Positions 5,702 to 61,116 of a DNA stretch of 64,000 bases are shown here, piece after piece. Positions within the stretch are counted from its first letter, which is position 1; every line of letters starts with the position of its first letter. The notes beneath the pieces are model-generated. The model searched no databases and was not told where the DNA came from. It was given only the letters and a program-made list of their open reading frames with translations. Position numbers and translations under genes: made by a program. This DNA comes from Candidatus Woesebacteria bacterium (GTDB lineage: Bacteria > Patescibacteriota > Microgenomatia > UBA1400 > UBA12028): NCBI GenBank assembly GCA_040006915.1, contig JBDTWD010000003.1, positions 38,023 through 102,022 of the forward strand, in the 5' to 3' direction.

Positions 5702-5708
5702 AGACGAG

Positions 5709-9716: not shown

Positions 9717-9717
9717 A

Positions 9718-11924: not shown

Positions 11925-12006
11925 GTCTATAGTATAGTACATCCGGCAACGAAAAGCCCCCCGATGTATCACCGAGGGGCTTCCATTTTTCAAAAACTAT
12001 TTTCCC

Positions 12007-23363: not shown

Positions 23364-24464
23364 TTAACGTTCTTTGAGGTAATACACCACTCCTTTTGTC
23401 ACGCCCTCTTTTTTAAGCAGCCCTTTATTCATCATGTCTTTTAAATCACGAAGAATTGTGTCTGCGGAGATCAGGGGAAGAATTTTTTGCACATCTCCTG
23501 TCGTCGCACTCTTCTTTTGTTGCAGCATTTCAAGGATAGAAATCTGTCGTTCAGATAAAGCGATCTGGATTCCCCCCAGACGATCTTTCAACTTTGCATC
23601 TTGAGAAAGTTTCTGCACTTGTTGCTTCACTCGATCAAGTTCCACTGCCAAACCAAAACAGAAATATTCCAGCCAATATGTCATATCTTGATTCGTTGAT
23701 TGCTGCACTGATTGGATGGCCCGATAATATCCATCAATATCTTTGTCGAAATACTCTTCAATACTAAATAATTTCTTCACATCATACCCTTCTGCATACA
23801 AGATAAGGAGTGAAAACGCTCGAGCTGTTCGGCCATTGCCTTCGATGAATGGATGAATGCGTACCAATTCGTAATGAGCAATCCCTGCCCGGATGACCGG
23901 ATGAATATCTTTATTGCTTGGACTATTCAGCCAATTCATGACATCTTTGACGAGCTCAGGAATTTGTAAAAACATCGGAGGACGAAACACCACACTGCCA
24001 TCAATTGCGGACCGGATGACCACCTGGGCGGTACGAAATTGCCCAACTTGATCTCCCGGAAGAATATTACGAACTGTCAGAGTATGCAGTGTTTGCAAAA
24101 TGCGTTCCGTGTAATCAATCGTTCGCGTAGTGTAGTTGCCCCAATCGTCGATCCATTTGAGAACTTCTCGGTAATTTAAAACCTCTTGAATATCACGTGG
24201 CCGGGCGATTACCCCCACTTCTTCGGCAACAGACTCAGGAGAACCAGTTCCTTGTGATTGCATCAGTGCTGCTGCCTGCTCTTTCGTGAGTTCATTTCCC
24301 TCTACCCGAGTTCCAAAATGAACGGTGCGAATACGAGCATCATCACGAAACTTTGCTTCCCAAGCAGGAACGAGTGGTGCATTCGTCACTACTTCCTTAC
24401 AAGCTTCAATGCGCCCGATATACTTTAAAAGATTGTTGGAGATTTTATAATTGGGTTGGAACAT
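23364..24464 (-). CDS. Fic/DOC family protein with C-terminal wHTH
   Basis: Fic motif HPFIEGNGRTAR. Confidence 0.85.
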   Translation of the reverse strand: MFQPNYKISNNLLKYIGRIEACKEVVTNAPLVPAWEAKFRDDARIRTVHFGTRVEGNELTKEQAAALMQSQGTGSPESVAEEVGVIARPRDIQEVLNYREVLKWIDDWGNYTTRTIDYTERILQTLHTLTVRNILPGDQVGQFRTAQVVIRSAIDGSVVFRPPMFLQIPELVKDVMNWLNSPSNKDIHPVIRAGIAHYELVRIHPFIEGNGRTARAFSLLILYAEGYDVKKLFSIEEYFDKDIDGYYRAIQSVQQSTNQDMTYWLEYFCFGLAVELDRVKQQVQKLSQDAKLKDRLGGIQIALSERQISILEMLQQKKSATTGDVQKILPLISADTILRDLKDMMNKGLLKKEGVTKGVVYYLKER

Positions 24465-32545: not shown

Positions 32546-34203
32546 AGTTGTACCTCCTCTTGTGGTCCAATAACTTCTTCACTGCGAGCCAGTTTGTTTC
32601 TCCAATCTTTCACTCTCCCTTGAATTGAAACCAAAATCGAAAGCTGTTCAACGGAGAACATTGCACACAAGAAAGTATAGACGATTGCTCCTGCCAGCGC
32701 TGCAGCTCCAGTCAGCGCAAATAATCCTAAAACTCGAGTTGTATCAAATACCAGTTGATCGAGGAGTTTCATGACCACGTATAGCGTACCTCCCATCAAA
32801 ATTGCAGAAAGAGCCAGTTTCCCTTGTGGGATAAAGAACTCTTTCCAATAGAAGGTTCGTAACCGATGAAAAAGCGTCACCAGTAACAGTAATACTTCAG
32901 TAAAAGCTGCAATCGTAAATCCAAGTGGAATCGCATGAACTCCCCATCCCAAAACTGCAGTCCCAAGCCACATGACAAAAATATTTATTCCCATGGCGAC
33001 AAGCGCAATAAAGAAAGGAACCTTGGTTTCTTTGAGTGCATAAAATGCTCGTAAAAGAACATGGATCATTGCTACCGCTCCGACTGCAATCGCATAAATC
33101 GCAACCAACTGACCAAGCAATACTGTATCTGTCCAAGGAAACTCTTTGGCGCCATATGCAAGTCGAACAATGGGAATACGTAAAACCAGTAAAAGGGCTC
33201 CGGCAGGATACATGAAAAATGCGATTTGATGTAAGGTTTTAATTAGAAGTTTCACAAAACCAACGATGTCGTGATCTTTGGCTTCGGAAGAGAGAAAAGG
33301 TAAAGCGGCTTGAGCAATTGAAACACCAAAAAAGCGAATCGGAGCTGCGATCAAACTTTGGGCAAAAGTCACGCTGGTAAGCAGTGTGCTTCCAAGTGAA
33401 GTTGCGATATACACCCCCACAAAATCTTCTACCGCATTGGTGGTTTGCGTTGCTCCTCTTGGGAGCATGAGTTTAAATACTTCACGGACGTTACTGTTCT
33501 GAAAATTCCAGCGCAAACGGAATACAAACCCGTACCGAATGGCGAGTGGCAACTGGATAGCGAAATGAACTACAGCTCCGAGGAGTACGCCAATCGTCGG
33601 TCCATAAATTCCCACGATAGGAGAGAAGATCAAGGTGCCGACGATAATTCCCAGGTTGTACAGGATTGGAGAAAGTGCGGGTAAGAGAAAACTTCTATTC
33701 GATTGTAAAATCCCTGACAAAAAATTACTCAGGAGGAAGAAAAACTGGGCTCCCAACATTACCCGCATCAGTTGAGCAGCCAACATCACTTGCTCCACAC
33801 TAAATTCTTTTCCGGTAAAGCTGCGAATTAACGGGACGGCAAATATCCCAGCTATAGTCGCAACAATGATGTAGGCAATTCCTAAAATGGTCATCAAGGT
33901 TTGAACAAATTGATGTTTCTCTTCATCTTGATGCAGAAGACGACTGTAGACAGGGATAAAGGTTGCAGATAAGACGCCTACAACCAGTAATTGAAACAAA
34001 AAGTCAGGAATCCGAAACGCAGCAAAGAATGCGTCCAGTAATGGACGACTTTCTCCGACAAAAACCGAGACCAACAAGCGTTTATAGAGTATCCCCAAAA
34101 CCGCCGAGCACACCGAGAGTGAGCCAATCAACGTCGCTGCCGATAGAATAGAGGTCTGCTCTGAAAACAGAAATGACGCGCTTTTTTTAAGGAGAGAAAC
34201 CAT
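32542..34203 (-). CDS. murJ: lipid II flippase MurJ. Likely start MVSLLKK at 34203; the track ORF extends to 34272.
   Basis: ~14 TM. N-terminal ...SRPLLDAFFAAFRIPDF...SATFIPVYS matches the MurJ/MviN conserved region. Confidence 0.85.
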   Translation of the reverse strand: MVSLLKKSASFLFSEQTSILSAATLIGSLSVCSAVLGILYKRLLVSVFVGESRPLLDAFFAAFRIPDFLFQLLVVGVLSATFIPVYSRLLHQDEEKHQFVQTLMTILGIAYIIVATIAGIFAVPLIRSFTGKEFSVEQVMLAAQLMRVMLGAQFFFLLSNFLSGILQSNRSFLLPALSPILYNLGIIVGTLIFSPIVGIYGPTIGVLLGAVVHFAIQLPLAIRYGFVFRLRWNFQNSNVREVFKLMLPRGATQTTNAVEDFVGVYIATSLGSTLLTSVTFAQSLIAAPIRFFGVSIAQAALPFLSSEAKDHDIVGFVKLLIKTLHQIAFFMYPAGALLLVLRIPIVRLAYGAKEFPWTDTVLLGQLVAIYAIAVGAVAMIHVLLRAFYALKETKVPFFIALVAMGINIFVMWLGTAVLGWGVHAIPLGFTIAAFTEVLLLLVTLFHRLRTFYWKEFFIPQGKLALSAILMGGTLYVVMKLLDQLVFDTTRVLGLFALTGAAALAGAIVYTFLCAMFSVEQLSILVSIQGRVKDWRNKLARSEEVIGPQEEVQL

Positions 34204-34342
34204 GATCAGTATAGGATACTCAATAAACTCCAAATACCAAATACCAAATTTAAAGAGCCTTCTCCTCCTCAAGTGCTTTCCAAAACTCAGGGGGAATGCT
34301 ATACTACTTGTTCAGTAAAACCTAGAAATACACGAAATCCGT

Positions 34343-34579
34343 ATGCCTATCACCAAATCAGCACTCAAAGCTTTACGTCAAGACCGTCGTCGCGCAGAGA
34401 CGAACAGACCTATTCGCTCTCGAGTAAAGACTACTTTAGATGAATTAAAAACTGCTCAGTCACAAACTGCTCTTTCCAGTGCTTTTTCTGCTATTGATCG
34501 AGCTTTAAAAAAGAATCTGATTCATCGAAATAAGGCTGCTCGTCTCAAGAGCAAGGCCTCTAAACTGATCTCAAAGTAA
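34343..34579 (+). CDS. rpsT: 30S ribosomal protein S20
   Basis: MPITKSALKALRQDRRRAETNRP... Confidence 0.9.
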   Translation: MPITKSALKALRQDRRRAETNRPIRSRVKTTLDELKTAQSQTALSSAFSAIDRALKKNLIHRNKAARLKSKASKLISK

Positions 34580-34582
34580 GTT

Positions 34583-34612
34583 CCTCACTTGTGCCAGTGC
34601 CCCTTTTTTTGC
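34583..34612 (+). terminator. possible weak intrinsic terminator after rpsT
   Basis: Short hairpin (CACT-TGTGCC-AGTG) followed by CCCC + a 7-T run. The stem is only 4 bp. Confidence 0.3.
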
Positions 34613-35260
34613 TACGCTGTTACCATGGCGTACAAACCGCAAACTCTTGTTATTCCAAAAATTAACCTTATTCCCCGGGATCCGTTCTATGAAACGACGA
34701 TTGGGAAGATTATGGTCTGGGCGATCCAAGTGGGTCGATACATCATCATTTTTACCGAAATTATTGTTATCATGAGCTTTGCTTCCCGCTTTAAGCTCGA
34801 TCGCGATCTGACAGATCTTACGGCCAAAGTCACACAGAAAAAAGCGATTGTCGAGTCATTTGGTGATATTGAAGCTCGTACTCGTACCATCCAAGATAAA
34901 ATTGCGACAACTCAAAAACTCCTTGCCGACGGAACAGCTATGTTTTATCTGGACAAAGTCACAGCCAGAATCCCGTCTGGAATCGAATTAACTCAACTTA
35001 CTCTTGATCCTGGTACCCTTACTTTTTCAGGAAAAGCTGTAAATTCGAACGTTCTGGCTGCCATGATCGTGGCGTTGCAGCAAGAGCCAGCCTTCACCAG
35101 TGTCTCTGTCGACAAGATCTCTTCAGGACAAGCAAATGATCCAAACGTTTCATTCGCAATTAAACTCACTATTCCACAGAAAGCAGTGGAAGCGAAAGTT
35201 GAAGATGGCAGTACACCAACAACTCCGCCCACATCACCTGATACACCAGTAACACCATAG
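34589..35260 (+). CDS. pilN: type IV pilus assembly protein PilN
   Basis: N-terminal INLIPRD (the PilM-binding INLLP motif), single TM, coiled-coil plus ferredoxin-like periplasmic domain, Pro/Thr C-terminal tail. Confidence 0.7.
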   Translation: MCQCPFFCYAVTMAYKPQTLVIPKINLIPRDPFYETTIGKIMVWAIQVGRYIIIFTEIIVIMSFASRFKLDRDLTDLTAKVTQKKAIVESFGDIEARTRTIQDKIATTQKLLADGTAMFYLDKVTARIPSGIELTQLTLDPGTLTFSGKAVNSNVLAAMIVALQQEPAFTSVSVDKISSGQANDPNVSFAIKLTIPQKAVEAKVEDGSTPTTPPTSPDTPVTP

Positions 35261-35264
35261 ATCT

Positions 35265-35924
35265 ATGCCAATCCAAAGACCATCACTACAACGAACTATT
35301 ATCCAGATGGATTTAAACCGCTTTTATGACAAGCCAGTCACCCGAGTATCTGTGGCATTAGTGCTTTCTCTACTCGCTATTGCTTTTTTCGCACTGGCTG
35401 CGATACGCCCGACTCTACAAACTATGGCAGAGTTATTAAAAGAAATTGATCAGAAAAAAACCTTAGATGAGAAATTGACGCAAAAAATTACGGCACTTAC
35501 TAGTGCTCAACGTCAACTCTCAGAAAAGGAAGCACTATTCCCTGTACTCTCGATCGCAATCCCCTCTAATCCAAACTTTGCTCAGCTCATGACAGTGATC
35601 GAAAAATTAGCAACGGAACGCCAAGTTGAATTTTCTTCGGCACAAATCCAAAAAGTTCCGCTTGAAGGCAAACCACCAAGCGCAACGGCAAAGTATCAAC
35701 TAGTTAGTTATCCTATGACACTTGCCTTCTCGGGATCATATGAGAATTTGATTCTACTCATGCGTGATCTTCAGTCCATTAAACGAATCATTGCAATTGA
35801 TCGATTTGATATTTCTCCTGCGGTACAAAGTGCCCCTACGGAGTTAACCCTTACCCTCGCAATTCGCGCATTCTCGTTTAATCAATTACAAGGAGCTGCT
35901 CCGGCACCGGTGCCTGTTCCGTAA
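35265..35924 (+). CDS. pilO: type IV pilus assembly protein PilO-like
   Basis: Single TM, coiled-coil (KKTLDEKLTQKITALTSAQRQLSEKE), periplasmic domain, Ala/Pro C-terminus, immediately after pilN. Confidence 0.6.
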   Translation: MPIQRPSLQRTIIQMDLNRFYDKPVTRVSVALVLSLLAIAFFALAAIRPTLQTMAELLKEIDQKKTLDEKLTQKITALTSAQRQLSEKEALFPVLSIAIPSNPNFAQLMTVIEKLATERQVEFSSAQIQKVPLEGKPPSATAKYQLVSYPMTLAFSGSYENLILLMRDLQSIKRIIAIDRFDISPAVQSAPTELTLTLAIRAFSFNQLQGAAPAPVPVP

Positions 35925-35931
35925 AATCAGT

Positions 35932-36318
35932 ATGAAAAAAAGATTAACATTTAAACAACTCCTCTTTGAACAACAGATACTGGGAATTTTGCTCTTTTCT
36001 GTATTAGTTGTGTTTTTGTGGGTAGTATCGACTATTTATTTTTCCTACACCAAATCTACACTTACCAGTGAAGATGAAACGGTTGTTATCCCTCTGAGTC
36101 CTATTATTGATGATCGCCCACTACAAGTTTTAAGTAGCCGACGCTGGTGGAGTGACAGTGATCTACAAAGCTTTGCAGTCAGTGTCGTGATACGTGACAG
36201 TAACGGAAAAACGACGACTTCTCAAACCCAAACAGGAGCAGCTTCACCATCTGCTACCCTTGCGCCCACTCCTGTCCCCACACCACTTCCAGCCTCTGGT
36301 TCTGCCCAAACGCAGTAA
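35932..36318 (+). CDS. membrane-anchored protein with Thr/Pro-rich C-terminus (PilP-position, hypothetical)
   Basis: N-terminal TM, small domain, PT-rich tail. 8-nt gap after pilO. Confidence 0.4.
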   Translation: MKKRLTFKQLLFEQQILGILLFSVLVVFLWVVSTIYFSYTKSTLTSEDETVVIPLSPIIDDRPLQVLSSRRWWSDSDLQSFAVSVVIRDSNGKTTTSQTQTGAASPSATLAPTPVPTPLPASGSAQTQ

Positions 36319-36365
36319 GTGTATGGTACTTGTAGTGCAATTAGTGAGCATGATAGCGTAGTACT

Positions 36366-37682
36366 ATGGCCCAATCGTTTCTTTCGACCAAAAGAATTCC
36401 CACCATTGTTGGTATTGTGATTTTGAGTGCTGGCTTGATCGGAGGAATCTTCTTAGCTAACTCTGTTACTACGGGCTTTCTTCCGAGAGCTTCCCCCGAG
36501 TCAACTCCAAAGAACTTAAAAATCACCAATGTCACCGATACCAGTTTTACTGTTTCTTGGGTAACCGATAGCAAGACAACCGGCTACGTAAAGTATGGCC
36601 CCAGCAGTAGTTCAATTAGCAGTGTTACTACTGATGATCGAGATCAAATTGGTGGTAGTGTTGGCCAATTTAAAACACATCATGTTACCCTTCGGGGATT
36701 AACTGCATCCACAACCTATTTCTATAAAATCGGTACTGGTACCAGCGAACTATACGACGATAGTGGCAAACCTTATCAAACAAAAACCACCGTTCCAATC
36801 ACCTCACCTGCAAAAACCTTGTACGGAGAAGTTCTTTCCAGTGATACAACCGGAGCCACTGGCGCCTTAATTTATATTAGTGGAGATTCAATTGCCCCAC
36901 TCTCTACCATTACGCAAAGTGGTGGAAGTTTTGCCTTATCACTAGCGATCGCCCGAGCGAAAGACGGTGTTAGCAGTGCCACTTTTACGGATGACACCAA
37001 GATTTCATTGCTCGTCATTAGTCCGATAGATGATACGACTAGTGTAATCGATGCAACGATTTCTCAAGGTCAGCCCTTCCCTGATATTGTATTAGGTAAG
37101 AATCAAAATCTCACAAGTCCCACACAAACACCCCAACCAGAAGCAGAAAATACTTCCGCTCCAACGCAAAGCAAGTTTACCAGTCAATTACTCTCAGCTC
37201 CGGTCGAGATTCCCGCGTCAGTCAGTGCCAACTTTCTTTCAATAAGTGCACCAACTGATCAATTTGTTTCAACTGTTGCTCGTCCAGTCTTAAGTGGTAC
37301 AGCTTCAAAAAGCGCAACCGTTTCGTTAGCTCTTAAAGGACCATCTACGTTAACAACGAGCACGAAAGCGACTGCAACGGGTGCATGGACATACACACCA
37401 GTAACGAGCTTGAAAAATGGCGCCTATACTCTTACAGCTAGTACCACAATCAGTGGAAAGAAAGAAACACAAAACGTTTCTTTCTCCATTTTGGTCCCCA
37501 CGCCTACGCCCAAAACCAGCACTGCTTCTGCAGTTTTAGGACTGCCATCCACTGAATCAGCAGATTTGGTATCCGGATCCACTGAAATCACCATTTCTTT
37601 TGCTCTCGCTGGTTTGTTATTTATCGGTTCTGGAGCTTTTTTCGCCACAATTCAGTCAAGTGATCACAAAAAAAGAAAATAG
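36366..37682 (+). CDS. surface protein with fibronectin type III-like domain, Ser/Thr-rich regions and C-terminal TM + basic tail
   Basis: NLKITNVTDTSFTVSWVTDS...YVKYG...TTYFYKIG is an FN3/PAP-N-like motif pattern. C-terminal ...TEITISFALAGLLFIGSGAFFATIQSSDHKKRK. Confidence 0.55.
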   Translation: MAQSFLSTKRIPTIVGIVILSAGLIGGIFLANSVTTGFLPRASPESTPKNLKITNVTDTSFTVSWVTDSKTTGYVKYGPSSSSISSVTTDDRDQIGGSVGQFKTHHVTLRGLTASTTYFYKIGTGTSELYDDSGKPYQTKTTVPITSPAKTLYGEVLSSDTTGATGALIYISGDSIAPLSTITQSGGSFALSLAIARAKDGVSSATFTDDTKISLLVISPIDDTTSVIDATISQGQPFPDIVLGKNQNLTSPTQTPQPEAENTSAPTQSKFTSQLLSAPVEIPASVSANFLSISAPTDQFVSTVARPVLSGTASKSATVSLALKGPSTLTTSTKATATGAWTYTPVTSLKNGAYTLTASTTISGKKETQNVSFSILVPTPTPKTSTASAVLGLPSTESADLVSGSTEITISFALAGLLFIGSGAFFATIQSSDHKKRK

Positions 37683-37727
37683 CATCTTGAGATTAGTTGA
37701 AAAGTTAGTTACTGTAGATATTGCATC

Positions 37728-39923
37728 ATGTCAGACGATCAAAAAACACCACCACCATCGCCACTCTCATCCACACAAGGAACTGCAAATTTGGATGATG
37801 TGCTGTCATCGTTGGAAAAACAGTTACCACAAGATTCAGCTACACCAGCGCCTGTTGACCCAGTCTCACCACCTAGTCCAACCCCACCTGTTACCCCTCC
37901 CGAGCCAATGCCTCCACTTACACCTGTAGAAGAAAAACCTGTTGAGCCAGTACCTCCGGTAATTCCACCTGCTCCAGAGCCAATGGCTTCAGCAGCCTCT
38001 ACCCCGACTCCACCGCCAGTTCCAACTTCTTCATCATTTGGTATTGAAGAAAACCACATTGAACCAGTAGCCACACCGGTTCCGGTAGCTACTCCTGAAC
38101 AAAGTCCCGTACTAACTGAAACGCTCAGAGAGCACCCTATGGTTGCGACGCAAACAACAACGACAACTGCTCCTCCTCCAAGAAAAAAAGGATTATTTGG
38201 AATTGATCCTAAGCTTATTGTGGGTGCTGCCGTTGTTTTCATTTTGGCAATTGGATCTGTTGCTGCATATTTGACAATTGGAGCACCAGCAGGTTCTTTG
38301 GATACGAGAAATCAAGCTTCCGGATGTAGTATTGTCTACAATCAAAACACTTTTACACTTACAAATTGTGTGGGATCTGGAACTATCACAAGGTTTAATG
38401 GACCGTCATGTCCAACAACACAGAATAAAGTAAGTGAGGTTCCTGCAACCGATGGTACTATTTCGCCTCAGCCGCCAGCAGGTCAATGTCAACAGGTCGA
38501 TCATAATTTTGGCGGAAATGGACCAGACGGGCTTCCAATTGGGGCTGGTGGAGTCTGTTCCTGTAATAGCGCTCCTTCCCCTACTCCTCAACCACGTGCT
38601 TGTGGTGAAGCATGTACCACAACAGCAAACTGCCGTAACCCAAGTACTGGAGGCTTTCCAGTTGAATGTCGCAACGGCAAATGTCAACTTCCCTTGACTG
38701 GTCCATACGCTTGTCCGGAAGGACAGTCTTCAGGTTCAATTTGTACCTGTGCAGCCAAAGTTCAATGTGGACAGCAATGTGGCCCTGCAGCTGGAGGGAA
38801 GTTGTGTAACCCTGGCAGTGTCTGCGGATTCTTGACTCCTTCAAACGCGTGCAAAGTGAACGGCGTTGATCAAAGTACAAAACAATACTGTATCCCTGTC
38901 AATCCAAATGGTGGATATAGCTCCAAGCGCTGTGACACCACTCCGGCAATCAACTATATTGCTGCTGACTCTTTGGTAAAACCAGACGGAACACAAACAA
39001 ACTTAACCGCTGCGGATGCAGTAGTTGCATGTACCCCAGTCTGTGGAGATAAGATTGTAGCTGGAAATGAAGAGTGTGATGCTGGAAGTGAAAATGGAAA
39101 GCCAGGATCAACTTGTGATGCAACGTGCAAAATGCGCAACGTCTGTGGCGACACTTGCTCTGCCGCTAGTGAATGCAATAAGCATTACGTTACCTTGCGA
39201 TGTAGTGTAGGCGCAACTGGAACAACCGAACGATACTGTGGATTAGATGCAATCGTTGAAAACGGAGTCACCATTGAAGAGAATAGTACCCGCTTCATCA
39301 AACCAGGAATGTGGAGAATCTCAAGTACTGCAGCTTTGAGTGGTGGATCTGAAATATACGACCACGAACAAGGTGCCACAATCTCCTTCTGGACCTCAGC
39401 AACAAATGTAACTCTCGTCTATACCAAAGCTTCAAATCGTGGAACCTTTAATATCCTTGTCGACGGAAAGCAGCAATCGGCAACTATCAATCAAAATGGG
39501 ACAACCACACAATACAAGCAAAATGCACTTATTACGGTTCGAGATGCCAGTATTCCTGAATATGTCTGCACCTCAAATACTTGCCGCCTGTCAACCAGCC
39601 CTGAGAGTCCGACCTGTGATGGGAATATTCCTTCTCCATCACCAACTCCATCGGCTCCACCACTCGCCTGTCTCCGTATTTCCTCTGATAATCCAACTCC
39701 AGTATTGGGAAGCCAAGTGCGATTCACTTGTGGCCTCGTCACTGGTGTTGATCGCTATGAATTCCGCTACAAGATGACATTCAATGGAGTTGATGGAGCT
39801 GGTGGAACACTCGCTGCAACTAATAATTTGTCTGCTCCTCTTACTGTTGATCAACCTGGAGATTATAAAGCACAGTGTCGGCCATGTGTTGGTCAGGCAT
39901 GTGCACCTTGGCAGAATTGGTAA
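37728..39923 (+). CDS. large bitopic Cys-rich protein: Pro-rich N-terminal ~165 aa, one TM, ~540-aa Cys-rich ectodomain including a myxo-type CGD..EECD repeat
   Basis: PPPSP/PVTPPEPMPPLTP N-terminus. TM LIVGAAVVFILAIGSVAAYLTIG. More than 50 Cys. CGDKIVAGNEECDAGSENG matches the myxococcal cysteine-rich repeat pattern. ACGEACTTTANC...C resembles the 8-Cys module. Confidence 0.55.
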   Translation: MSDDQKTPPPSPLSSTQGTANLDDVLSSLEKQLPQDSATPAPVDPVSPPSPTPPVTPPEPMPPLTPVEEKPVEPVPPVIPPAPEPMASAASTPTPPPVPTSSSFGIEENHIEPVATPVPVATPEQSPVLTETLREHPMVATQTTTTTAPPPRKKGLFGIDPKLIVGAAVVFILAIGSVAAYLTIGAPAGSLDTRNQASGCSIVYNQNTFTLTNCVGSGTITRFNGPSCPTTQNKVSEVPATDGTISPQPPAGQCQQVDHNFGGNGPDGLPIGAGGVCSCNSAPSPTPQPRACGEACTTTANCRNPSTGGFPVECRNGKCQLPLTGPYACPEGQSSGSICTCAAKVQCGQQCGPAAGGKLCNPGSVCGFLTPSNACKVNGVDQSTKQYCIPVNPNGGYSSKRCDTTPAINYIAADSLVKPDGTQTNLTAADAVVACTPVCGDKIVAGNEECDAGSENGKPGSTCDATCKMRNVCGDTCSAASECNKHYVTLRCSVGATGTTERYCGLDAIVENGVTIEENSTRFIKPGMWRISSTAALSGGSEIYDHEQGATISFWTSATNVTLVYTKASNRGTFNILVDGKQQSATINQNGTTTQYKQNALITVRDASIPEYVCTSNTCRLSTSPESPTCDGNIPSPSPTPSAPPLACLRISSDNPTPVLGSQVRFTCGLVTGVDRYEFRYKMTFNGVDGAGGTLAATNNLSAPLTVDQPGDYKAQCRPCVGQACAPWQNW

Positions 39924-39925
39924 CT

Positions 39926-40735
39926 ATGAAAAATCGAAAGTCTATCATCGCTGGTTTCATACTTTTTGTCCTAGTAGTGGCTGCTATTGGAGTGGTGATT
40001 ATCACTCGCCGAACTTCAGGAACACAATCTGTTGCTCCAACAGCTCCACAATCACAGCCAGCAGCAACATCTTGTACCCTTTCCTTTACGGTCGAAGGGA
40101 CACCTGGCCCTTCTGAAAGTCCAACCCCAACCCCTTCTGCATCACCGACAGCAAGCCCAAGTCCAACTCCAACCGCTACTCCTGTTGCTCAATGTAACAG
40201 TACTTGTGCGTCCGATAGTGACTGTCCTGCATCTATGACTTGTTCTAGTGGAACGTGTCGTAATCCAGCGTGTACAGACTCAGACAGCTGTGTATGTGCG
40301 ACTGCAACACCTGCTCCTACACCAACACCGACCCCAGGACCATCGTGTAACAGTGAATGCACCACCAATGATCAATGTCCGTCAAACTTAATCTGTGCTT
40401 CAGGTCGCTGCAGAATGCCAGGCTGCACTGCTCTGGATAGCTGTACTTGTGGACCAACCTGTAACTCAACCTGTACAACCAACTCTGACTGTCCAAGTGA
40501 TCTGATCTGTGCCTCGAATCAATGTCGCCGACCTGGATGTACAGCTCTGGATACGTGTTCATGTGGTACACCTGGACCAACAGCTACCCCTACAACTCCA
40601 CCAGTTGTGGTCCAAAGCACGCCTGTACCACAGGAAGTCCTTCCAGTCGCAGGTTCTTCCCTCCCAACAGCAGGGTTAGTAGGAACTGGGATCATCACTA
40701 TCATCATCGGAATCCTAGGGCTACTAGCACTCTAA
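39926..40735 (+). CDS. Cys-rich repeat surface protein with C-terminal LPTAG + TM sorting signal (start MKNRKS at 39926, 2 nt after the upstream gene)
   Basis: N-terminal TM/signal, PT-rich linker, three tandem 8-Cys modules, ...EVLPVAGSSLPTAG-LVGTGIITIIIGILGLLAL. Confidence 0.6.
   Translation: MKNRKSIIAGFILFVLVVAAIGVVIITRRTSGTQSVAPTAPQSQPAATSCTLSFTVEGTPGPSESPTPTPSASPTASPSPTPTATPVAQCNSTCASDSDCPASMTCSSGTCRNPACTDSDSCVCATATPAPTPTPTPGPSCNSECTTNDQCPSNLICASGRCRMPGCTALDSCTCGPTCNSTCTTNSDCPSDLICASNQCRRPGCTALDTCSCGTPGPTATPTTPPVVVQSTPVPQEVLPVAGSSLPTAGLVGTGIITIIIGILGLLAL
40193..40564 (+). repeat. three tandem copies of a ~35-aa 8-Cys module (CNSxCxxxxDCPSxLICASxxCRxPxCTALDSCxCG) encoded in-frame
   Basis: R1 AQCNSTCASDSDCPASMTCSSGTCRNPACTDSDSCVC. 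R2 PSCNSECTTNDQCPSNLICASGRCRMPGCTALDSCTCG. R3 PTCNSTCTTNSDCPSDLICASNQCRRPGCTALDTCSCG. Confidence 0.7.
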
Positions 40736-40832
40736 CTTCTCTTCGAAAAAGAACGCCATTTCATTGCTGACGTCCCTAAAAGAATGAGCATCACAAATAC
40801 ATGCTAGAAGAAAGTGCTTTCAGAGAGTTTCT

Positions 40833-41036
40833 TTAAGAAGCTTTTGATGGGACAGTTTTTTTGAAGCGGATAAAGGGAATGTTTACCTGCTTATCGCCTG
40901 AGTTTAAGGTGATCGCAAATCCCCCTTCGTTTAATTCGTTATGCTCTGCTAAAGAATCGAGTTGATCAATACGATCCCAAAACTCGTCATCAGTCAGCTG
41001 AATCAATTCCAATGGAAGTTGAAAAAAAGTTTGCAT
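40833..41036 (-). CDS. small hypothetical protein (67 aa)
   Basis: ORF only. Confidence 0.25.
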   Translation of the reverse strand: MQTFFQLPLELIQLTDDEFWDRIDQLDSLAEHNELNEGGFAITLNSGDKQVNIPFIRFKKTVPSKAS

Positions 41037-41115
41037 GAGACCTCTATCCTACCACTCTGTTCCATTTTTTCAAGAAAAGACACTTTGGATGTTATAATTT
41101 CCAGAGAGAAATAAG

Positions 41116-41189
41116 GGGCGTGTGGCGCAATCGGTTAGCGCAGGAAGCTTATACCTTCAAGGTTCCTGGTTCGAGTCCAGGCACGCCCA
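41116..41189 (+). tRNA. tRNA, anticodon loop CUUAUAC -> anticodon UAU (Ile, AUA-reading) by hand folding
   Basis: Acceptor GGGCGTG/CACGCCC, D-arm GCGC-AATCGGTTA-GCGC, anticodon arm GGAAG-CTTATAC-CTTCA (27-43 mismatch), variable AGGTT, T-arm CCTGG-TTCGAGT-CCAGG, discriminator A. CCA not encoded. Confidence 0.75.
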
Positions 41190-41395
41190 CAATCGTTGAA
41201 TAGGTTCATAAATTATGTGTGCTATGCCAGTTCTATCGAATGCGTGATACCATTTATGTAGTAGAAAAATGCATATATATGATTTCTTCTGTTCTCTGCC
41301 TACTTCTCATCAAACTTTAAGGCTTTTATGATATATATGTCTCGCGGTGATTCGACGTATAAACTGGGTGTACAATACACAAGTGAAAAGCAAAT

Positions 41396-41644
41396 ATGAT
41401 AAATATAAAGTTCGGCTCCAATAAAGAATCCAAATCATTCGTACTAAGCCTCTTCGACAAGACCATTGATAATGAAGGATATATCATTGAACAAAAATCA
41501 AAGAAGAGAGTGCTTAGTGCTGACGGACAGGAGATTACCCTCGAAGAATTTGGCGTGATTAAAAACGGTTCTGAAATCTTTGCAAAAGATGATATCGCCG
41601 CACTTGTTCGCTTTTACGAAAGGTACCTTAGCGATGCTAAGTAG
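41396..41644 (+). CDS. hypothetical protein (82 aa)
   Basis: ORF downstream of the tRNA, no motif. Confidence 0.35.
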   Translation: MINIKFGSNKESKSFVLSLFDKTIDNEGYIIEQKSKKRVLSADGQEITLEEFGVIKNGSEIFAKDDIAALVRFYERYLSDAK

Positions 41645-41653
41645 GTCTACTTT

Positions 41654-42466
41654 ATGTTGGATCTACTCCCTGGCTTAAAGACTATAATTGAGAAAGTTGG
41701 ACTGTCTGATTCGCTCAACCTCTTCTCCAACAACACGCAGAAAAACAACATCCTTAACGTAAATATAAACATCCAACCTGGAACTGATCCAAAAGCGCTC
41801 GCAGAAGTCGCTGTGGAGATGAAGAAACTCATACGAGGCAGTGAAGATGGTTTTTTGGGTGTAACGGACAAATCAGAAACAACGCTAGAGTTGATTGATG
41901 GATATGAAAAGAGTGATGTGGATGTGGAGCAAAGGAAGTTCGTGATGAGCTGTATTCCACAAAGAGATCGATCACTTTGGATGTCTGCACTAATACTTCG
42001 GAGACAATTCAAACTCATGGGCAATAAAGAAGAAGTTTGGCGAATTAAGGGGGATATGTCCAGATCGAGTTCTAGAGGGAAAAATATTGCCAATCTCTGT
42101 ACTGCAGGCTACTTGGAATCACATATAATTCCGCTGTATGAACACGTGGTTAATGAAAAACATGACGAGCAACAATTCATTGATATTTACTCAATGATCG
42201 TATCGGACTTCCCTTTTGCTGTTTTTGTGTCTCAGCTTCGATCAGATACGGAAATAAATGCAGAGATCGTTGAAAAAATCGAGACAGTTGGACAGTACGG
42301 ATGGAAGATGGTCAAGGTTCACGGGATCGGAGAGGAAAATGTAAAAAAAATTCAACGTGTAGTGCTGCAAGTACAAGATGAGAAAAAAGCTGAAATAATC
42401 AGCACTGATGTAGATTCCCACCGATCAGGCGGACAAATAATCGCTGTTACTTTCAATCTTAAATAG
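41654..42466 (+). CDS. hypothetical protein (270 aa)
   Basis: Clean ORF. Weak resemblance of C-terminal VKVHGIGEENVKKIQRVV to an Smr-type HGxG motif only. Confidence 0.45.
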   Translation: MLDLLPGLKTIIEKVGLSDSLNLFSNNTQKNNILNVNINIQPGTDPKALAEVAVEMKKLIRGSEDGFLGVTDKSETTLELIDGYEKSDVDVEQRKFVMSCIPQRDRSLWMSALILRRQFKLMGNKEEVWRIKGDMSRSSSRGKNIANLCTAGYLESHIIPLYEHVVNEKHDEQQFIDIYSMIVSDFPFAVFVSQLRSDTEINAEIVEKIETVGQYGWKMVKVHGIGEENVKKIQRVVLQVQDEKKAEIISTDVDSHRSGGQIIAVTFNLK

Positions 42467-43829: not shown

Positions 43830-46163
43830 TTAAAGCTTCGCTCGAACGGCTGTTTCTTGTTCCACAATATCTCGTGGACGACCGTATTTAATCCTTGAGA
43901 GCTCACGAATGAGTTCAGCGCGTTTGGGATCCATCAGTTTCTTCTCCCCTTCAATATCGCGCGTTAAGTCCATGCTAAATGGAGGAACAGGCTCGTTGTT
44001 CACAATGGTTTTGATGTAGACGTGATATTTTTCAATATTGGTTAAATCTGTTTCAGAAAATGTTGGCGCAAATTCATGTTGCAGAAAATTTGCATCCGGA
44101 ACACCAACACGGAAAGTTACCATCGAGCCAACGTTGCCAAAGACCGCGTTCTTTACGTCTTCTTCGATCTGAGCCACAAACTGGTTGGCAACAATCAAAT
44201 TTAGTCGGTACTTACGAGCTTCAGAAAGAATGGTAGCGAAATCTTCAGTTGCATAGTTTTGGAACTCATCGACGTAGAGATAGAAATCTCGACGCTGCTC
44301 CATCGGCATATCTTGACGACTCATGGCAGCCGTTAAAATCTTTGGCACCAAAATCAAACCTAAGAACTTGGCATCCTCTTCTCCCAATTTTCCTTTGGAT
44401 AAATTGACCAAGAGAATCTTTCCTTCATCCATAACCTGGCGGAAATTAAAAGCGCTTTGACTTTGGCCAATAATGTTTCGCATTACCTTATTGGTAATGA
44501 ATTTGCCAAATTTCGAAACGATGTAGTCTAGAACTTCAGACTTATGGAAATCACTCGTCTGGGCAATCTGGTCCGTCCAGTAGCGACGCACAACCGGATC
44601 TTTCACTTTCGGAAGCAGTTCCTGCACATACTTTTGATCAGTCAAACAGCGCACGAGTTCAATAAAAGTAGCCCCTGGTTCAGCCATAATAGTTAACATG
44701 GCGTTACGAATGGCATGCTCAAATCGTGGACCGATGATACCGGTTTTGTGTGGATCGTAGAGCTTGTACATTAACGCGATAATTGATCCCACCACAAAAT
44801 GCATCTGTTCTTCGGTCTGCGCTTCCATAATATTTAAACCCATCGGTCGTTCAGTATCAGATGGATTAAAGTAAATAACTTCTTCAGCTCGTTCTGGAGG
44901 GATAAGCTGCATGATATCTTCGACCAACTCTCCATGTGGATCCAAAACTGCCATCCCTTTTCCAGCTCTGATATCCTGCAAAATCATATCTTTTAAGAAT
45001 TCTGATTTTCCGGTACCAGTCTTTCCGACAATATACATGTGACGTTGACGATCTTTTTCCTCAATAAAGATCTCTTTCTTTGTCCCTCGATAATTACTTG
45101 AACCTAAGCGCATTCCAGAAGTTGCGATACTGGCCGGAGCCGGAGCCGACTTAGCTTTAAGCCAATTAATGTGGTGGGTTTCAACCGTTTTATTAGGGAA
45201 ATGCAGAATTGTAGACATCTCTTCAGAATTTAAAACAAATGCCCCGCGATCAAATAACGGCATGTAGCGATAAATGAAATCGACCATGAATAATTGCTTG
45301 AACAAAATTCTCGATCGCTTAAAGCTATTCGTTGGACTACTAAACTGAGCAAAAGCACCAAGAATGTTAGTTAAGTGAGAATTAGCCCTCCTGGCATCAA
45401 TTGATGAGACCACAACACGCAGAGCTACTTTAAATCCTGGTTTGGAAGCTTTGGTCTCAATGGCATCCAGTTTTTTAGGGTCATGATTATAGGAAGCTTT
45501 TTGTGGATCAGATTCTTTTTTCTTCGTATCGGCAACATACTTGCTTCCAGCTCGCTGCCATCCGGGACCAGCGGGCTCTAACACAAATTGCACAATTGCC
45601 CCCTCACCTTCATCCATTTTCGAAAGCGCTGAACTTAAGAGTGATAGTCCATCAGTGGGAAGATCTTTATATACTTTAATTGGTAGATACGTTTGACTGG
45701 CTAGAGTCAAAGCTGCAAACGCAACTTTGCCACCTTCTGAGAAAATATTGTATTCTTCCGCCTCTTCAATCTCTGCAGATGGATAGGCTCCATAAATTTG
45801 TTTTTCAATCAAATCAGTTAACTCCGCTGGAACCGTAACGTAAAAGGCAATGCTTTCGTGTAACGCCACAATTTCAAACGTAAAGTGATCTTCAGGTTTA
45901 AGAATTGATCCCACTCCTTCATTTTTTAAACTGTATAAACCGGCAAACATCTGTTCAGCTGCATCAATTTTTATTTCGTTCTCTTTAGGTAACAATACTT
46001 TGAGAACCTTAAAGCCAAGTGAGTATTTTTCTCTCCCACGGAATCGAAACCATTGGACAACCATATAGACGAGCCCTGCTCCGAAGATCAACGGGATCGC
46101 AAACAAGGCCAGGCTTGTGAGAATTTGGGTAACGACAATTGCAATATCAGTGGTTGGATCCAT
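43830..46163 (-). CDS. VirD4/TraG/TraD-family type IV coupling protein-like membrane ATPase
   Basis: Two N-terminal TM helices, Walker A YIVGKTGTGKSEF, Walker B FYLYVDEFQNY, C-terminal ...SEARKYRLNLIVANQFVAQIEE (TraG-D_C-like). Confidence 0.65.
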   Translation of the reverse strand: MDPTTDIAIVVTQILTSLALFAIPLIFGAGLVYMVVQWFRFRGREKYSLGFKVLKVLLPKENEIKIDAAEQMFAGLYSLKNEGVGSILKPEDHFTFEIVALHESIAFYVTVPAELTDLIEKQIYGAYPSAEIEEAEEYNIFSEGGKVAFAALTLASQTYLPIKVYKDLPTDGLSLLSSALSKMDEGEGAIVQFVLEPAGPGWQRAGSKYVADTKKKESDPQKASYNHDPKKLDAIETKASKPGFKVALRVVVSSIDARRANSHLTNILGAFAQFSSPTNSFKRSRILFKQLFMVDFIYRYMPLFDRGAFVLNSEEMSTILHFPNKTVETHHINWLKAKSAPAPASIATSGMRLGSSNYRGTKKEIFIEEKDRQRHMYIVGKTGTGKSEFLKDMILQDIRAGKGMAVLDPHGELVEDIMQLIPPERAEEVIYFNPSDTERPMGLNIMEAQTEEQMHFVVGSIIALMYKLYDPHKTGIIGPRFEHAIRNAMLTIMAEPGATFIELVRCLTDQKYVQELLPKVKDPVVRRYWTDQIAQTSDFHKSEVLDYIVSKFGKFITNKVMRNIIGQSQSAFNFRQVMDEGKILLVNLSKGKLGEEDAKFLGLILVPKILTAAMSRQDMPMEQRRDFYLYVDEFQNYATEDFATILSEARKYRLNLIVANQFVAQIEEDVKNAVFGNVGSMVTFRVGVPDANFLQHEFAPTFSETDLTNIEKYHVYIKTIVNNEPVPPFSMDLTRDIEGEKKLMDPKRAELIRELSRIKYGRPRDIVEQETAVRAKL

Positions 46164-51090: not shown

Positions 51091-51903
51091 ATGAATAAAA
51101 GAGTTCTCATCGGTTTGATTCTCATCATCACAGTTATAGTGGGAATTGGACTCGCTGTCAGTTTATACCTCTCAAGTCAGACGCAAGAGAATCGAAATCA
51201 AGCCTGGACCACAACGCAATCAGCCAACAGTACCTGTGGCGTTGATGGAAAAGCGGTCATCGTCGTCACGTTTTCAAATACAGAACCTGCGAATACTCCT
51301 GCAGACGACATGACTGTCTCTGCTACAGATACCCAGAGCAATCAAAGTGTCAGTATTGGATTAGTCAAAGGTGGGGAAACACTTTCAGCCTCAATTTTGA
51401 CAGGATTTGCTTCGCTAGCGGCTGGAAACGTCCAGCTCCGTCTGACTTGGGCAAATGGAAGAGCAGGAACGGATACTCGAACTGCAAGTTACGGTGCGGT
51501 CTCAACTTGTCTAGTTGCTACCCCCTCCCCAACCCCTGAGATAACCCCTGTTCCCTCACCCACTCCCGAGGTAACACCTAGTCCTACACCAATAACGACA
51601 TCAACTCCTCAGCCAACCAGTACACCGACTAATACTCCTCCCCCCACCTCAGGACCAAGTTGTAACTCACAATGCACCGTCAACACCGATTGTCCCTCAG
51701 ACTTAATCTGTGCATCAAACCAATGTCGCAGACCTGGATGTACTGCCCTTGACTCCTGCAACTGTGGAACACCGGCACCGGCGACACCCACCTCAACTCC
51801 ACAGATATTACCAGTCGCAGGTGGAAGTGGACCGACACTATTTATTCTCACAGCTGGGATGTTTATTCTCATTCTTGGAGTCCTGGGTTTTACGAGACTG
51901 TGA
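51091..51903 (+). CDS. Cys-rich module surface protein with PT-rich linker and C-terminal LPVAGG + TM sorting signal
   Basis: N-terminal TM. TPSPTPEITPVPSPTPEVTPSPTP linker. One 8-Cys module PSCNSQCTVNTDCPSDLICASNQCRRPGCTALDSCNCG (module at 51661-51765). ...QILPVAGGSGPTLFILTAGMFILILGVLGFTRL. Confidence 0.6.
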   Translation: MNKRVLIGLILIITVIVGIGLAVSLYLSSQTQENRNQAWTTTQSANSTCGVDGKAVIVVTFSNTEPANTPADDMTVSATDTQSNQSVSIGLVKGGETLSASILTGFASLAAGNVQLRLTWANGRAGTDTRTASYGAVSTCLVATPSPTPEITPVPSPTPEVTPSPTPITTSTPQPTSTPTNTPPPTSGPSCNSQCTVNTDCPSDLICASNQCRRPGCTALDSCNCGTPAPATPTSTPQILPVAGGSGPTLFILTAGMFILILGVLGFTRL

Positions 51904-53027: not shown

Positions 53028-53660
53028 CTATTTTGCTAATAGCGCATCTACAGTGGATTTCAAATCATTTACGTCGGTTGCGACGTTATTTACGTAAAAG
53101 GTTGGAGTCGCATTGACTCCAAGAGTATTGGCATCGGTTTGATCAGCTGTGATCCTCGCTTCTACTTCTGGACTCACGCGATCTTTCTTAAATTTCTCTA
53201 CATCAAGTTTTAAATCTTTTGCGTACCCATCAAACTTAGAAGTTGGGTCAGCATCCTCTTCCCACTCTGATTGGGTTTCAAACAATTTGTCATGCATCTC
53301 CCAAAATTTTCCTTGATTAGCAGCTGCTTCAGCAACTTTGGACGCCGCATACGCATTTTTATGAACAGTAGTGAGTGGATAGTGACGATACACCAATCGC
53401 ACGCTCTCTGTAGCTGTCTGAGTAATCAAATCAACTAACGGTTGTGCAGCTTTACAGGCCGGACACTGGAGATCGGAAAATTCAACGATCGTGACTTTGG
53501 CATCCTCTTTCCCTTTGCTGTTTTTGGTTTGTCCTAACACTACTTTCGAATCAACTGGAGCAACCGGAGCATTCGCTTTTTTGGTAAACAAAAATGCAAC
53601 CGCAACTACGGCAATACATGTAACAGCGAGTGAACCTAAAAGGAGCCAAAGATTTTTCAT
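53028..53660 (-). CDS. DsbA-like thiol:disulfide oxidoreductase (second paralog)
   Basis: N-terminal TM/signal. CPAC active site (FSDLQCPACKAAQPL). Confidence 0.75.
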   Translation of the reverse strand: MKNLWLLLGSLAVTCIAVVAVAFLFTKKANAPVAPVDSKVVLGQTKNSKGKEDAKVTIVEFSDLQCPACKAAQPLVDLITQTATESVRLVYRHYPLTTVHKNAYAASKVAEAAANQGKFWEMHDKLFETQSEWEEDADPTSKFDGYAKDLKLDVEKFKKDRVSPEVEARITADQTDANTLGVNATPTFYVNNVATDVNDLKSTVDALLAK

Positions 53661-60630: not shown

Positions 60631-61116
60631 CTATTCTAGAAACCCTTCCACAATCATATCTTCAGCAAGTTTCTGTGGGATTCCCCGGCTTTCTAGATAA
60701 AACAAATGTTCTTCAGGAATCCTTGAGATACTCGCAGCGTGAGAACATTTCACATCATCAGTCTTGATTTCGAGTTCGGGAATGGCTTCAGCTTTGGCCT
60801 TGTCAGACAGTAATAAAATTCGTTCCTCTAAAAATGACTGGGTGTCTCCACAGTCTTCCTCGATAATGATCCGACCAAAAAACCGAATATGGCTCTTGTC
60901 TTCTGCTACTCCCTTGAGTATCGTTTTGGCTCGCGTGTGAGGAGCTTTATGCACAATCGTTAAGTTAATGTTTATGTCATCATCATTTTTTCCGTGAAAC
61001 ATTCCTACGATTGATATTTCATCTCCAGGATTAAGAATTTCGACTCGATAGTCACCTGATTTGGTCAAGGTAATGTTTTTCATATTAGCCAACTGACCCT
61101 TCCATCTCATGATCAA
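60631..61116 (-). CDS. sufD: SufD-like protein, short form (161 aa, C-terminal SufBD domain only). TTG/alternative start likely.
   Basis: ...ILLLSDKAKAEAIPELEIKTDDVKCSHAASISRIPEEHLFYLESRGIP matches the SufB/SufD C-terminal signature (LEI..DDVKCSHGAT). Confidence 0.7.
   Translation of the reverse strand: MIMRWKGQLANMKNITLTKSGDYRVEILNPGDEISIVGMFHGKNDDDININLTIVHKAPHTRAKTILKGVAEDKSHIRFFGRIIIEEDCGDTQSFLEERILLLSDKAKAEAIPELEIKTDDVKCSHAASISRIPEEHLFYLESRGIPQKLAEDMIVEGFLE

Follow-up and report, generated by a model that had tools for sequence, protein, structure and literature searches.

What is the large cysteine-rich protein encoded at 37728..39923 (+) of the Candidatus Woesebacteria DNA studied here (64 kb, the whole stretch being referred to as the window), and how is it held at the cell surface? 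The open reading frame (ORF) runs from ATG to stop through 731 codons, and its product is 100% identical to ABI758_02885, a protein from a Candidatus Woesebacteria metagenome-assembled genome (MAG) at NCBI (142,872-bp contig), annotated as "hypothetical protein". Bacteria of the Candidate Phyla Radiation (CPR; also called Patescibacteria) are believed to live in attachment to other cells; to our knowledge, type IV pili apart, almost nothing is known about their attachment surface proteins, especially outside Saccharibacteria. We hold with moderate confidence that the gene encodes a signal-anchored (type II, N-in/C-out), bitopic, multi-domain surface adhesin or receptor. It belongs to a narrow uncurated CPR family, whose layout is a variant of the bitopic surface adhesin/receptor kind.

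The topology has been predicted from several independent features of the sequence. Only one segment exceeds the Kyte-Doolittle value of 1.6 over 19 aa (approximately aa 155-189, with windows starting at 155-171 and the maximum of 2.46), its core being LIVGAAVVFILAIGSVAAYLTI at aa 163-184. We assign the single transmembrane (TM) helix, or signal anchor, to aa 163-185 (38214..38282, +), in agreement with a helix at aa 164-183 in the AlphaFold2 (AF2) model. Direct counting gives 85 Pro and 39 Cys residues in the whole protein, the first Cys being C200, and all 39 are C-terminal to the TM; the count of more than 50 in the ectodomain, given in a first-pass annotation of this locus, is thus too high. 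The 15 residues before the TM contain four K/R, the 15 residues after it, one, and the ten full-architecture homologues are biased likewise; their N-terminal tails of 150-325 aa are free of Cys, all of their 27-41 Cys being located past the TM. Moreover, in the paralogues P0002, P0003, P0004, P0006, and P0014 the same Cys modules are found directly behind classical N-terminal signal peptides, and hence these modules are extracytoplasmic. The predicted topology, with the N-terminus in and the Cys-rich domain out, is well supported, and in this respect, as well as in the presence of a Pro-rich N-terminus before a single TM, we agree with the first-pass annotation. The latter also considered such topology unusual for a surface protein; on the contrary, a long Cys-free N-tail before the TM is seen in 45 out of 105 relatives sharing the C-terminal domain with ABI758_02885.

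Two genes of the window encode DsbA-like/Thioredoxin_4 proteins (12007-12756, -, and 53028-53660, -), and these are likely extracytoplasmic disulfide-forming enzymes that would act on the many Cys-rich surface proteins. Their presence is a further point in favor of the topology and fits the described enrichment of MdbA-like oxidoreductases in CPR (PMC6744442). The first of the two proteins has an N-terminal extension of approximately 80 aa, and a thioredoxin reductase is encoded at 12826-13758.

Other modes of export and anchoring fit the sequence poorly. A classical cleaved Sec signal peptide would have its hydrophobic core within about 30 aa of the N-terminus and an AXA site 3-7 aa further on, and here the core is at aa 163-185. 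For a lipoprotein, the A-S-G-C stretch at aa 197-200 is too distant from the TM, nor is it conserved as a lipobox. The C-terminus ...QCRPCVGQACAPWQNW lacks the hydrophobic tail of the sortase-anchored LPXTG type. A prepilin (class III) signal has a short basic leader, which here would be approximately 155 aa long, and homologues do not keep the "KKG-LFGID", or G/F/E+5, pattern: both G-1 and the acidic +5 residue are missing from P0009, P0010, P0012, and P0017.

The part of the protein predicted to be cytoplasmic contains a conserved element at aa 19-33 (TANLDDVLSSLEKQL; 37782..37826, +), which, based on the alignment, the AF2 model and the hydrophobic moment, is likely a short amphipathic helix (hydrophobic moment of the segment 0.5-0.57). 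In the AF2 model the helix spans aa 22-30 inside the otherwise disordered region 1-193, where the predicted local distance difference test score (pLDDT) is below 50. The motif proper (N-motif, TANLDDVLSSLEKQ, aa 19-32) follows the pattern [ST]A[NS]LD[DE][VI]L[AS]SLE[KQ]Q, and in the alignment of 10 homologues A20, L22, D23, L26, S28, L29, E30, and Q32 are invariant. It has been identified in 24 of 160 fetched relatives, always 9-45 aa from the start and 29-299 aa ahead of a TM, and also in distant relatives with unrelated ectodomains. Two positions outside the search pattern are kept too, the A at -2 by 16 of the 24 motif-bearing relatives and the Q at +10 by 19 of them. A likeness of the N-motif to the C-terminal peptide of FtsZ was rejected, as the two are out of register and the I-P-x-F core is missing.

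The N-motif is followed by a disordered, acidic, Pro/Thr/Ser/Val-rich spacer (aa 34-162; 37827..38213, +; assigned by composition and pLDDT below 50), ending in RKK. The N-terminal region as a whole (aa 1-162) consists of Pro by 26%, with TPPPSP among its stretches, and contains two aromatic residues, no Cys, and 19 D+E versus 8 K+R. Within the spacer, FGIEENHIE (aa 104-112, E108 invariant) and EHP (aa 135-137, P137 invariant) are semi-conserved, and the basic cluster just before the TM is another conserved cytoplasmic feature. Neither the sequence nor the length of the Pro-rich stretch is conserved among homologues, the distance between the N-motif and the TM ranging from approximately 30 to 300 aa. 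Because the linker varies so freely, the suggestion of the first-pass annotation that PxxP-like prolines of the tail engage cytoplasmic partners is unsupported: the stretch appears to behave as a disordered variable spacer, not as a conserved PxxP ligand. The conserved element is the N-terminal helix, which that annotation had missed, and what the data support for the cytoplasmic side is a flexible tether carrying a short linear motif.

The same conservation bears on the start of the gene. The ATG at 37728 has no obvious Shine-Dalgarno sequence ahead of it, and M138 is located 24 aa ahead of the TM; hence the protein might have been thought to begin near M138, just before the TM, the Pro-rich part being untranslated, and such a mis-called start had been named beforehand as an outcome that would refute the first-pass interpretation. 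Yet the first 33 codons encode the motif with eight residues invariant across 10 homologues, recurring in about 24 relatives, the frame is open throughout, and homologues keep equivalent N-terminal extensions of approximately 45-325 aa. Since the N-terminal motif is conserved, a mis-called start is effectively refuted, and we give it next to no probability. An antisense ORF of 167 codons (37739-38242, -) encoding a Gly-rich sequence opposite the Pro-rich region is a shadow of CCN codons and not a gene.

The search of 1.84 billion representative proteins with a profile of ten full-architecture proteins yielded 450 matches at E <= 1e-3, of which 25 have E <= 1e-30, and most of them share with the query only the C-terminal domain (CTD) or the Cys-rich middle. 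A word-indexed search of 5.8 billion clusters produced 17 close relatives only, all unnamed or "hypothetical", and its repetition with a 17-sequence profile added no further members, so that we operate with 17 close and 450 distant relatives. A locally built hidden Markov model of the CTD finds this domain in 105 of the 160 fetched proteins, ending at most 10 residues from the C-terminus in 87 of these. The N-motif is present in 23 of the 105 CTD proteins. In 22 others a late TM is preceded by a different long N-tail, free of Cys and P/T/S-rich; the TM is early, or replaced by a signal peptide, in 36, and 24, probably fragments, have no TM. The full-layout members, among them P0020, P0022, P0023, P0025, P0026, P0075, P0100 (the 1009-aa protein of locus L013), P0103, P0104, and P0136, retain the CTD together with N-motif, tail, and TM, while their Cys-rich middles are quite different, this part being swapped between members.

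The family layout as predicted from the alignments is an N-terminal helix motif, a disordered tail, a conserved TM, a D-x-R-x-x-A motif, a variable Cys-rich middle, and a CTD resembling fibronectin type III (Fn3) domains. ABI758_02885 has all of these traits, with the N-motif within 45 aa of the start, a Cys-free tail, G-x3-A/G in the TM, [DE]-x-R-x-x-A after it, the terminal CTD, and the same position in a gene cassette (see below). We have found no description of this family in the literature, and papers on a "cysteine-rich repeat" treat a different repeat. Nothing significant was found among 5.8 billion proteins with a profile of the anchor (TM plus QSQDIRQQA), which is too short for such a search, and out of 79 pattern stretches found by scanning metagenome contigs none was confirmed by tblastn. 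As for the taxonomy, loci L007-L010 and L012 come from third-party MAG records titled "uncultured Pseudomonadales bacterium", and that of L013 is titled Candidatus Paceibacterota; the loci L007-L010 and L012 are of the Woesebacteria type, and the labels look unreliable.

Both the membrane span and the residues following it are conserved. The TM carries the conserved AIGSVAAY, with G176-x3-A180 forming a small-x3-small pattern; G176, V178, and Y181 are invariant, and A167, V170, and A180 are conserved in at least 90% of the aligned homologues. It is followed by the strikingly conserved extracellular juxtamembrane motif, here SLDTRNQAS (aa 190-198; 38295..38321, +), a version of the family signature [DE]-x-R-x-x-A. 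Of 127 TM-bearing relatives, 51 have the consensus QSQ[DE][IVL]RQQA[SA] (QSQDIRQQA), and among the 57 whose TM is late it is observed in 38, R and A being invariant in the alignment of the anchor.

This motif raises the possibility that the first 190 or so residues are an extended leader, or pro-region, that targets the protein to Sec, with a protease cutting at or near D-x-R-x-x-A and releasing the ectodomain, which would then perhaps be held on the surface by the CTD, while the N-motif would do no more than target the protein for export or set the timing of it. Precedents are provided by autotransporters, with their extended signal peptide regions, and by the long signal peptides of serine-rich adhesins in Gram-positive bacteria. 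QSQDIRQQA is the most widely conserved short element and is also found after short, ordinary-looking signal sequences, as in the 299-aa protein of locus L011; paralogues with plain signal peptides show that the ectodomain modules work without the anchor of ABI758_02885; 87 of 105 relatives have the CTD at the very end of the chain, where sorting or attachment domains are often located; and an A-P-A-G stretch is present at aa 186-189. However, the hydrophobic core of about 22 residues with the conserved small-x3-small pattern is more similar to a TM than to the h-region of a signal peptide, the motif has Q or N at -3, which is not the signal peptidase I pattern, and lies approximately 12-16 residues past the core, A186-P187-A188 is not conserved in homologues, and a conserved helix with a tail of up to 300 aa would be costly to discard. 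We consider such a leader unlikely and retain the signal-anchored adhesin or receptor as the working interpretation. The L011 protein (3461-4360 of Candidatus Woesebacteria JAGOVC010000023) combines an early TM, QDLRQQA, a long PT-repeat linker, and the same Fn3-like CTD, and its gene is located between ftsA (2031-3332) and ftsZ (5023-6303), after an ftsQ-like gene.

The ectodomain is composed of modules, the beta-sandwiches among them predicted by AF2. The membrane-proximal beta-sandwich (aa 196-281; 38313..38570, +; CSIVY...FNGPSCPTTQ...QCQQVDH...GGVCSC) is all-beta with pLDDT 85-91 and has 55-60% identity to full-architecture homologues; no Pfam family matches it. The following Cys-rich, Cys-knot-like modules (aa 285-435; 38580..39032, +; pLDDT 67-87 over 290-435) include an eight-Cys unit at aa 292-341 with the spacing C-x3-C-x5-C-x11-C-x4-C-x9-C-x9-C-x-C. 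The 8-Cys module noticed at first pass is hence present, with the likeness to the modules of the DPY-like protein encoded downstream seen at the pattern level only (BLASTP E 1.3).

Next comes a single DUF4215-like Cys repeat (aa 435-467, CTPVCGDKIVAGNEECDAGSENGKPGSTCDATC; 39030..39128, +), with CGDKIVAGNEECDAG at aa 439-453. The match to Pfam DUF4215 (PF13948) is sub-threshold, 20.5 bits versus the gathering score of 27 (E 6e-4), and the CGDG...EECD signature together with the Cys spacing, as read directly, is CGDKIVAGNEECDAGSENGKPGSTCDATC, aligning to positions 17-46 of 47 of the profile. The first-pass annotation described this region as a myxobacterial-type CGD...EECD repeat; the sequence and its spacing are indeed there, in one copy and with the score below the threshold. 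The TIGR02232 check suggested at that time gave no support, as none of the NCBIfam models, TIGR02232 included, matches the protein at E <= 0.1. No tandem array is formed, CGD...EECD occurring once, no equivalent repeat is detected by Pfam in the paralogues at E <= 0.01, and the AF2 model has pLDDT below 50 at aa 437-469. What defines the protein is not this DUF4215-like repeat, which is inserted, marginal, and present once.

The region 470-630 is again beta-rich (pLDDT 73-89) and contains, among flanking Cys, an all-beta sandwich module (aa 501-615; 39228..39572, +), possibly of a carbohydrate-binding type. There are 13 related copies of this module among the relatives, and four of them have sub-threshold matches to Pfam CE2_N, the best with E 7e-4. 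The protein ends with the Fn3-like CTD (aa 644-731; 39657..39920, +; LACLRI...RFTCG...YEFRYK...QCRPCVGQACAPW), which has four conserved Cys and forms a beta-sandwich at aa 645-731 in the AF2 model (pLDDT 84-91); no sequence-level match to the Pfam fn3 profile is seen in it.

A cytoplasmic motif, a single TM and an extracellular module of a possible carbohydrate-binding type could also make up a sensor resembling the anti-sigma factor RsgI, in which binding of a polysaccharide outside, or intramembrane proteolysis, would free a transcription factor sequestered by the N-motif. The topology matches (N-in, single TM, distal beta-sandwich with a weak signal of carbohydrate esterases or carbohydrate-binding modules), and the juxtamembrane motif could serve as a site-1 cleavage site. 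On the other hand, neither RsgI_N, zf-HC2, RskA, nor any other anti-sigma domain is found at E <= 0.1 in Pfam and NCBIfam. Anti-sigma domains are approximately 50-90 residues long, and the conserved cytoplasmic element here has only about 14. At none of the loci does the cassette include a gene for a sigma factor or a regulator, and the beta-sandwich module is missing from most family members. We regard this alternative as very improbable.

The modules of the ectodomain do not share a common history. The N-terminus, the TM, and the proximal domain have 55-73% identity to the orthologues P0007 and P0008 and only short chance local alignments to P0002, a secreted paralogue from the same genome, whose gene is not in the window. 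For aa 285-435 the relationship is reversed, with 84% identity to P0002 and 81% to P0003 versus 66-67% to P0007/P0008. The segment 436-640 has 63% identity to P0002 and is an insertion absent from the N-motif group (P0007-P0010, P0012, P0015-P0017) and found only in the secreted paralogue group. The CTD again follows the orthologues, with 74-76% identity to P0007/P0008 versus 28% to P0002 (23-31% across the secreted group). As aa 285-435 group with the secreted lineage and the insertion 436-640 is confined to it, the protein is mosaic: these identities are best explained by a gene of the N-motif type in which recombination with a secreted paralogue replaced or extended the middle.

The gene is the second of a three-gene cassette. 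The upstream partner (36366..37682, +) encodes a 438-aa protein with an N-terminal TM, Fn3 (Pur_ac_phosph_N) and Big_13 domains recognized by Pfam, a C-terminal TM, and a KKRK tail. The ATG of the downstream partner (39926..40735, +) is two bases past the stop codon of ABI758_02885, and its 269-aa product has an N-terminal TM, repeated eight-Cys DPY-like modules (Dumpy_DPY, E 1.8e-9), and C-terminal LPxAG with a hydrophobic tail. An Fn3/Big_13 gene directly precedes each N-motif member for which upstream sequence is available, DPY-like homologues follow the family genes in L001-L005, L007-L010, and L013, and the complete order Fn3/Big_13 - family member - DPY-like is observed in the window, the JGI contig, L002, L003, L004, L005, L010, and L013, and partly in L007. 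Both cassette neighbours have C-terminal hydrophobic anchors with sortase-like motifs before them (LPSTES...LVSGST followed by the TM and the KKRK tail in the upstream protein, and LPVAGSSLPTAG followed by the TM in the downstream one), and their L013 orthologues have VPKSGS and LPKAGS at this place.

Upstream of the cassette, on the same strand, are rpsT (34343-34579, +), pilN (34625-35260, +; Pfam PilN, the true start being the M at 34625 with the N-terminal KINLIPRD containing the INLIP motif), pilO (35265-35924, +; Pfam PilO), and a gene for a 128-aa bitopic protein (35932-36318, +; identified from its sequence); pilN, pilO, and the latter gene lead into the cassette with gaps of 4-47 nt. 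This arrangement suggests a type IV pilus accessory, in which ABI758_02885 and its two partners, co-transcribed with pilN-pilO, would make up a structure surrounding or flanking the pilus and spanning the envelope of a cell that lacks the PilQ secretin, and the N-terminal helix would dock onto PilM, PilB, or PilT, as INLLP of PilN docks onto PilM. In favor of it, the three upstream genes are co-directional and closely spaced, and the same gene order is kept in the JGI contig, L002, L003, and L010. CPR genomes have PilM/N/O/B/C/T and lack PilQ (PMC6744442), which also agrees with such a structure.

The linkage, however, does not extend across the family. Whereas pilN, pilO, and the small gene adjoin the cassette in five cases (the window, the JGI contig, L002, L003, and L010), they are absent from L004, L005, and L013, where the cassette stays and the Fn3/Big_13 gene directly follows murJ. 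Besides, none of the PilM, PilB, PilC, PilT, and pilin genes is present in the window, as is also the case for sortase genes, and the protein has no class III signal, as noted above. We consider a role in the pilus unlikely. Since the cassette persists where pilN-pilO are absent, the robust unit is the three-gene surface cassette, and the link to pilN-pilO is lineage-limited. Promoter and terminator scans over 34200-41700 gave the same results as shuffled sequence and are hence uninformative on the operon structure.

A role of ABI758_02885 as a receptor or adhesin is plausible, judging by the predicted architecture, and may be envisaged as follows. The disulfide-stabilised ectodomain would project from the cell and bind an external ligand, probably a glycan or a protein on the surface of another cell, be it a host or a partner; candidates for the binding parts are the distal Fn3-like domain and the beta-sandwich module. 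Inside, the flexible tether would present the N-terminal helix to a cytoplasmic partner, and by this the protein might be localised, clustered, or coupled to internal machinery. The conserved TM would pack against another helix, either of its own copy or of a cassette partner, and recombination among paralogues would diversify the exposed middle of the ectodomain.

Several observations weigh against this interpretation. The protein has nothing above threshold in Pfam or NCBIfam, the ten relatives have no Pfam families, and there is neither family nor experimental annotation to lean on; the whole protein, searched against PDB sequences, has no matches better than noise (E >= 0.1). The full-length AF2 model was built on an alignment of 17 sequences and has mean pLDDT 65 and predicted template modelling score 0.33; compared by Foldseek with PDB, it yields nothing at E <= 1e-3 and only generic immunoglobulin/Fn3 matches, so that the ligand-binding part of the interpretation has beta-sandwich folds with generic matches as its sole basis. 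The profile of the module 501-615 has no match among PDB sequences either, and, since its CE2_N matches are sub-threshold, the putative carbohydrate-binding role is a lead, not a result. The N-motif occurs once in the window, and no cytoplasmic partner has been identified. Cleavage near D-x-R-x-x-A may occur, in which case the ectodomain would be freed and the role of the tail altered. Finally, as the cassette-bearing genomes are collinear over a wider region (LepA-MurJ ... TrwB-like ATPase), synteny is weak evidence of functional coupling.

It is also conceivable, although we think it quite unlikely, that the anchor as a whole (the N-helix, the Cys-free tail, the TM, and QSQDIRQQA) is the signature of an undescribed CPR-specific system, either a sorting and processing pathway or an inside-out coupling device, with paralogue recombination varying the ectodomain, as a functional counterpart, in an episymbiont lineage, of Mycoplasma adhesin variation. 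In the coupling form, a cytoplasmic machine may grip the N-terminal helix and position, or pull on, a surface adhesin complex; candidates for this machine are the motor of the pilus, the division machinery, and a TrwB/HerA-like ATPase whose gene is 4 kb away. The gene of this 777-aa TrwB/VirD4-like ATPase (43830-46163, -; DUF87/HerA, DUF8128) is always on the opposite strand, a few kb downstream of the cassette. The ATPase is 85-90% identical across genomes in which the family of ABI758_02885 has only 34-60% identity; so strong a conservation is unusual for a "coupling protein" when type IV secretion genes are not visible in the vicinity.

What is concrete are the anchor motifs and the mosaic history, while a new mechanism is not demonstrated. 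The locus defines an uncurated Woesebacteria family with a clear, testable anatomy, in which a putative docking helix on a tether, a TM with the juxtamembrane motif, and an exchangeable disulfide-rich ectodomain are followed by a tip resembling Fn3. Should there be a partner for the cytoplasmic motif, the family would provide a handle on the linking of surface binding to the interior in minimal cells; if it does not, this is one more lineage-specific adhesin-like protein.

Other genes of the window deserve mention. One more Cys-repeat surface protein of 270 aa is encoded at 51091-51903 (+), between two genes for family 4 (GT4) glycosyltransferases, and has a sub-threshold Dumpy DPY match (E 2.9e-4). 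The region 7697-11993 contains two ATP-grasp genes (7697-8740, +, and 9718-11040, -), a gene for a MATCAP-like peptidase (8718-9716, -), and one for a 7TM_transglut membrane protein (11001-11993, -), which together possibly constitute a peptide-modification or ligation module. An ATP-dependent DNA ligase of the archaeal/eukaryotic type, with N, adenylation, and C domains, is encoded at 21649-23349 (-), next to a Fic/DOC-HTH protein at 23364-24464. The 870-aa SufB/SufD-core protein encoded at 61085-63697 (-) bears an intein, with Hint, Intein_splicing, and LAGLIDADG_3 between two SUFBD_core stretches; it is followed by a second SUFBD_core ORF of 161 aa (60631-61116).

Comparison with known systems shows partial similarity to several of them. 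Residues 435-467 follow the C-G-D-x7-E-E-C-D-x-G ... C-x3-C scheme of the Myxococcales-type DUF4215/TIGR02232 repeat. Tandem arrays are typical of that family, whereas here a single copy is present, scoring below the gathering threshold, leaving TIGR02232 unmatched, and having a low-confidence structure. The CTD resembles Fn3 domains in the predicted fold, and differs from them in the lack of a sequence-level match, in the four conserved Cys, and in its location, which in CPR surface proteins is almost invariably the extreme C-terminus. In Clostridia, anti-sigma factors of the RsgI type are N-in bitopic proteins with a cytoplasmic N-terminal binding element and extracellular modules of the carbohydrate-binding type. 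The layout of ABI758_02885 is alike, but it has a 14-residue helix on a long disordered tether, with no anti-sigma domain and no sigma factor gene nearby.

A parallel within the same gene run is PilN, encoded 2.5 kb upstream, which is also bitopic and N-in, with a short conserved peptide at the extreme cytoplasmic N-terminus (INLLP, here INLIP). This peptide of PilN docks onto the cytoplasmic PilM. The two genes belong to a common co-directional run in five genomes, and the linkage is lost in distant relatives. The cytoplasmic part of PilN is about 20 aa long and has no long disordered spacer, its periplasmic domain is small and ferredoxin-like, and no PilN domain is found by Pfam in ABI758_02885.

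In Mycoplasma, the surface-exposed parts of the Nap adhesins are diversified by recombination with paralogous repeats. The Nap adhesins of Mycoplasma (P1/P140 with P40/P90/P110), bitopic adhesins of a reduced-genome, host-dependent bacterium, are the nearest functional analogy. Their ectodomains have 45-50% identity, compared to above 80% in the TM and cytoplasmic regions, and small-x3-small (Engelman) motifs in the TM are important for function (PMC11984735). There is neither sequence nor fold homology between these adhesins and ABI758_02885, and the orientation differs, the TM and the cytoplasmic tail being C-terminal in the Nap adhesins, whereas here both the anchor and the tail are N-terminal. 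At the same time, ABI758_02885 resembles them in combining a variable ectodomain and a mosaic history with conservation of the TM (G176-x3-A180) and of a cytoplasmic motif.

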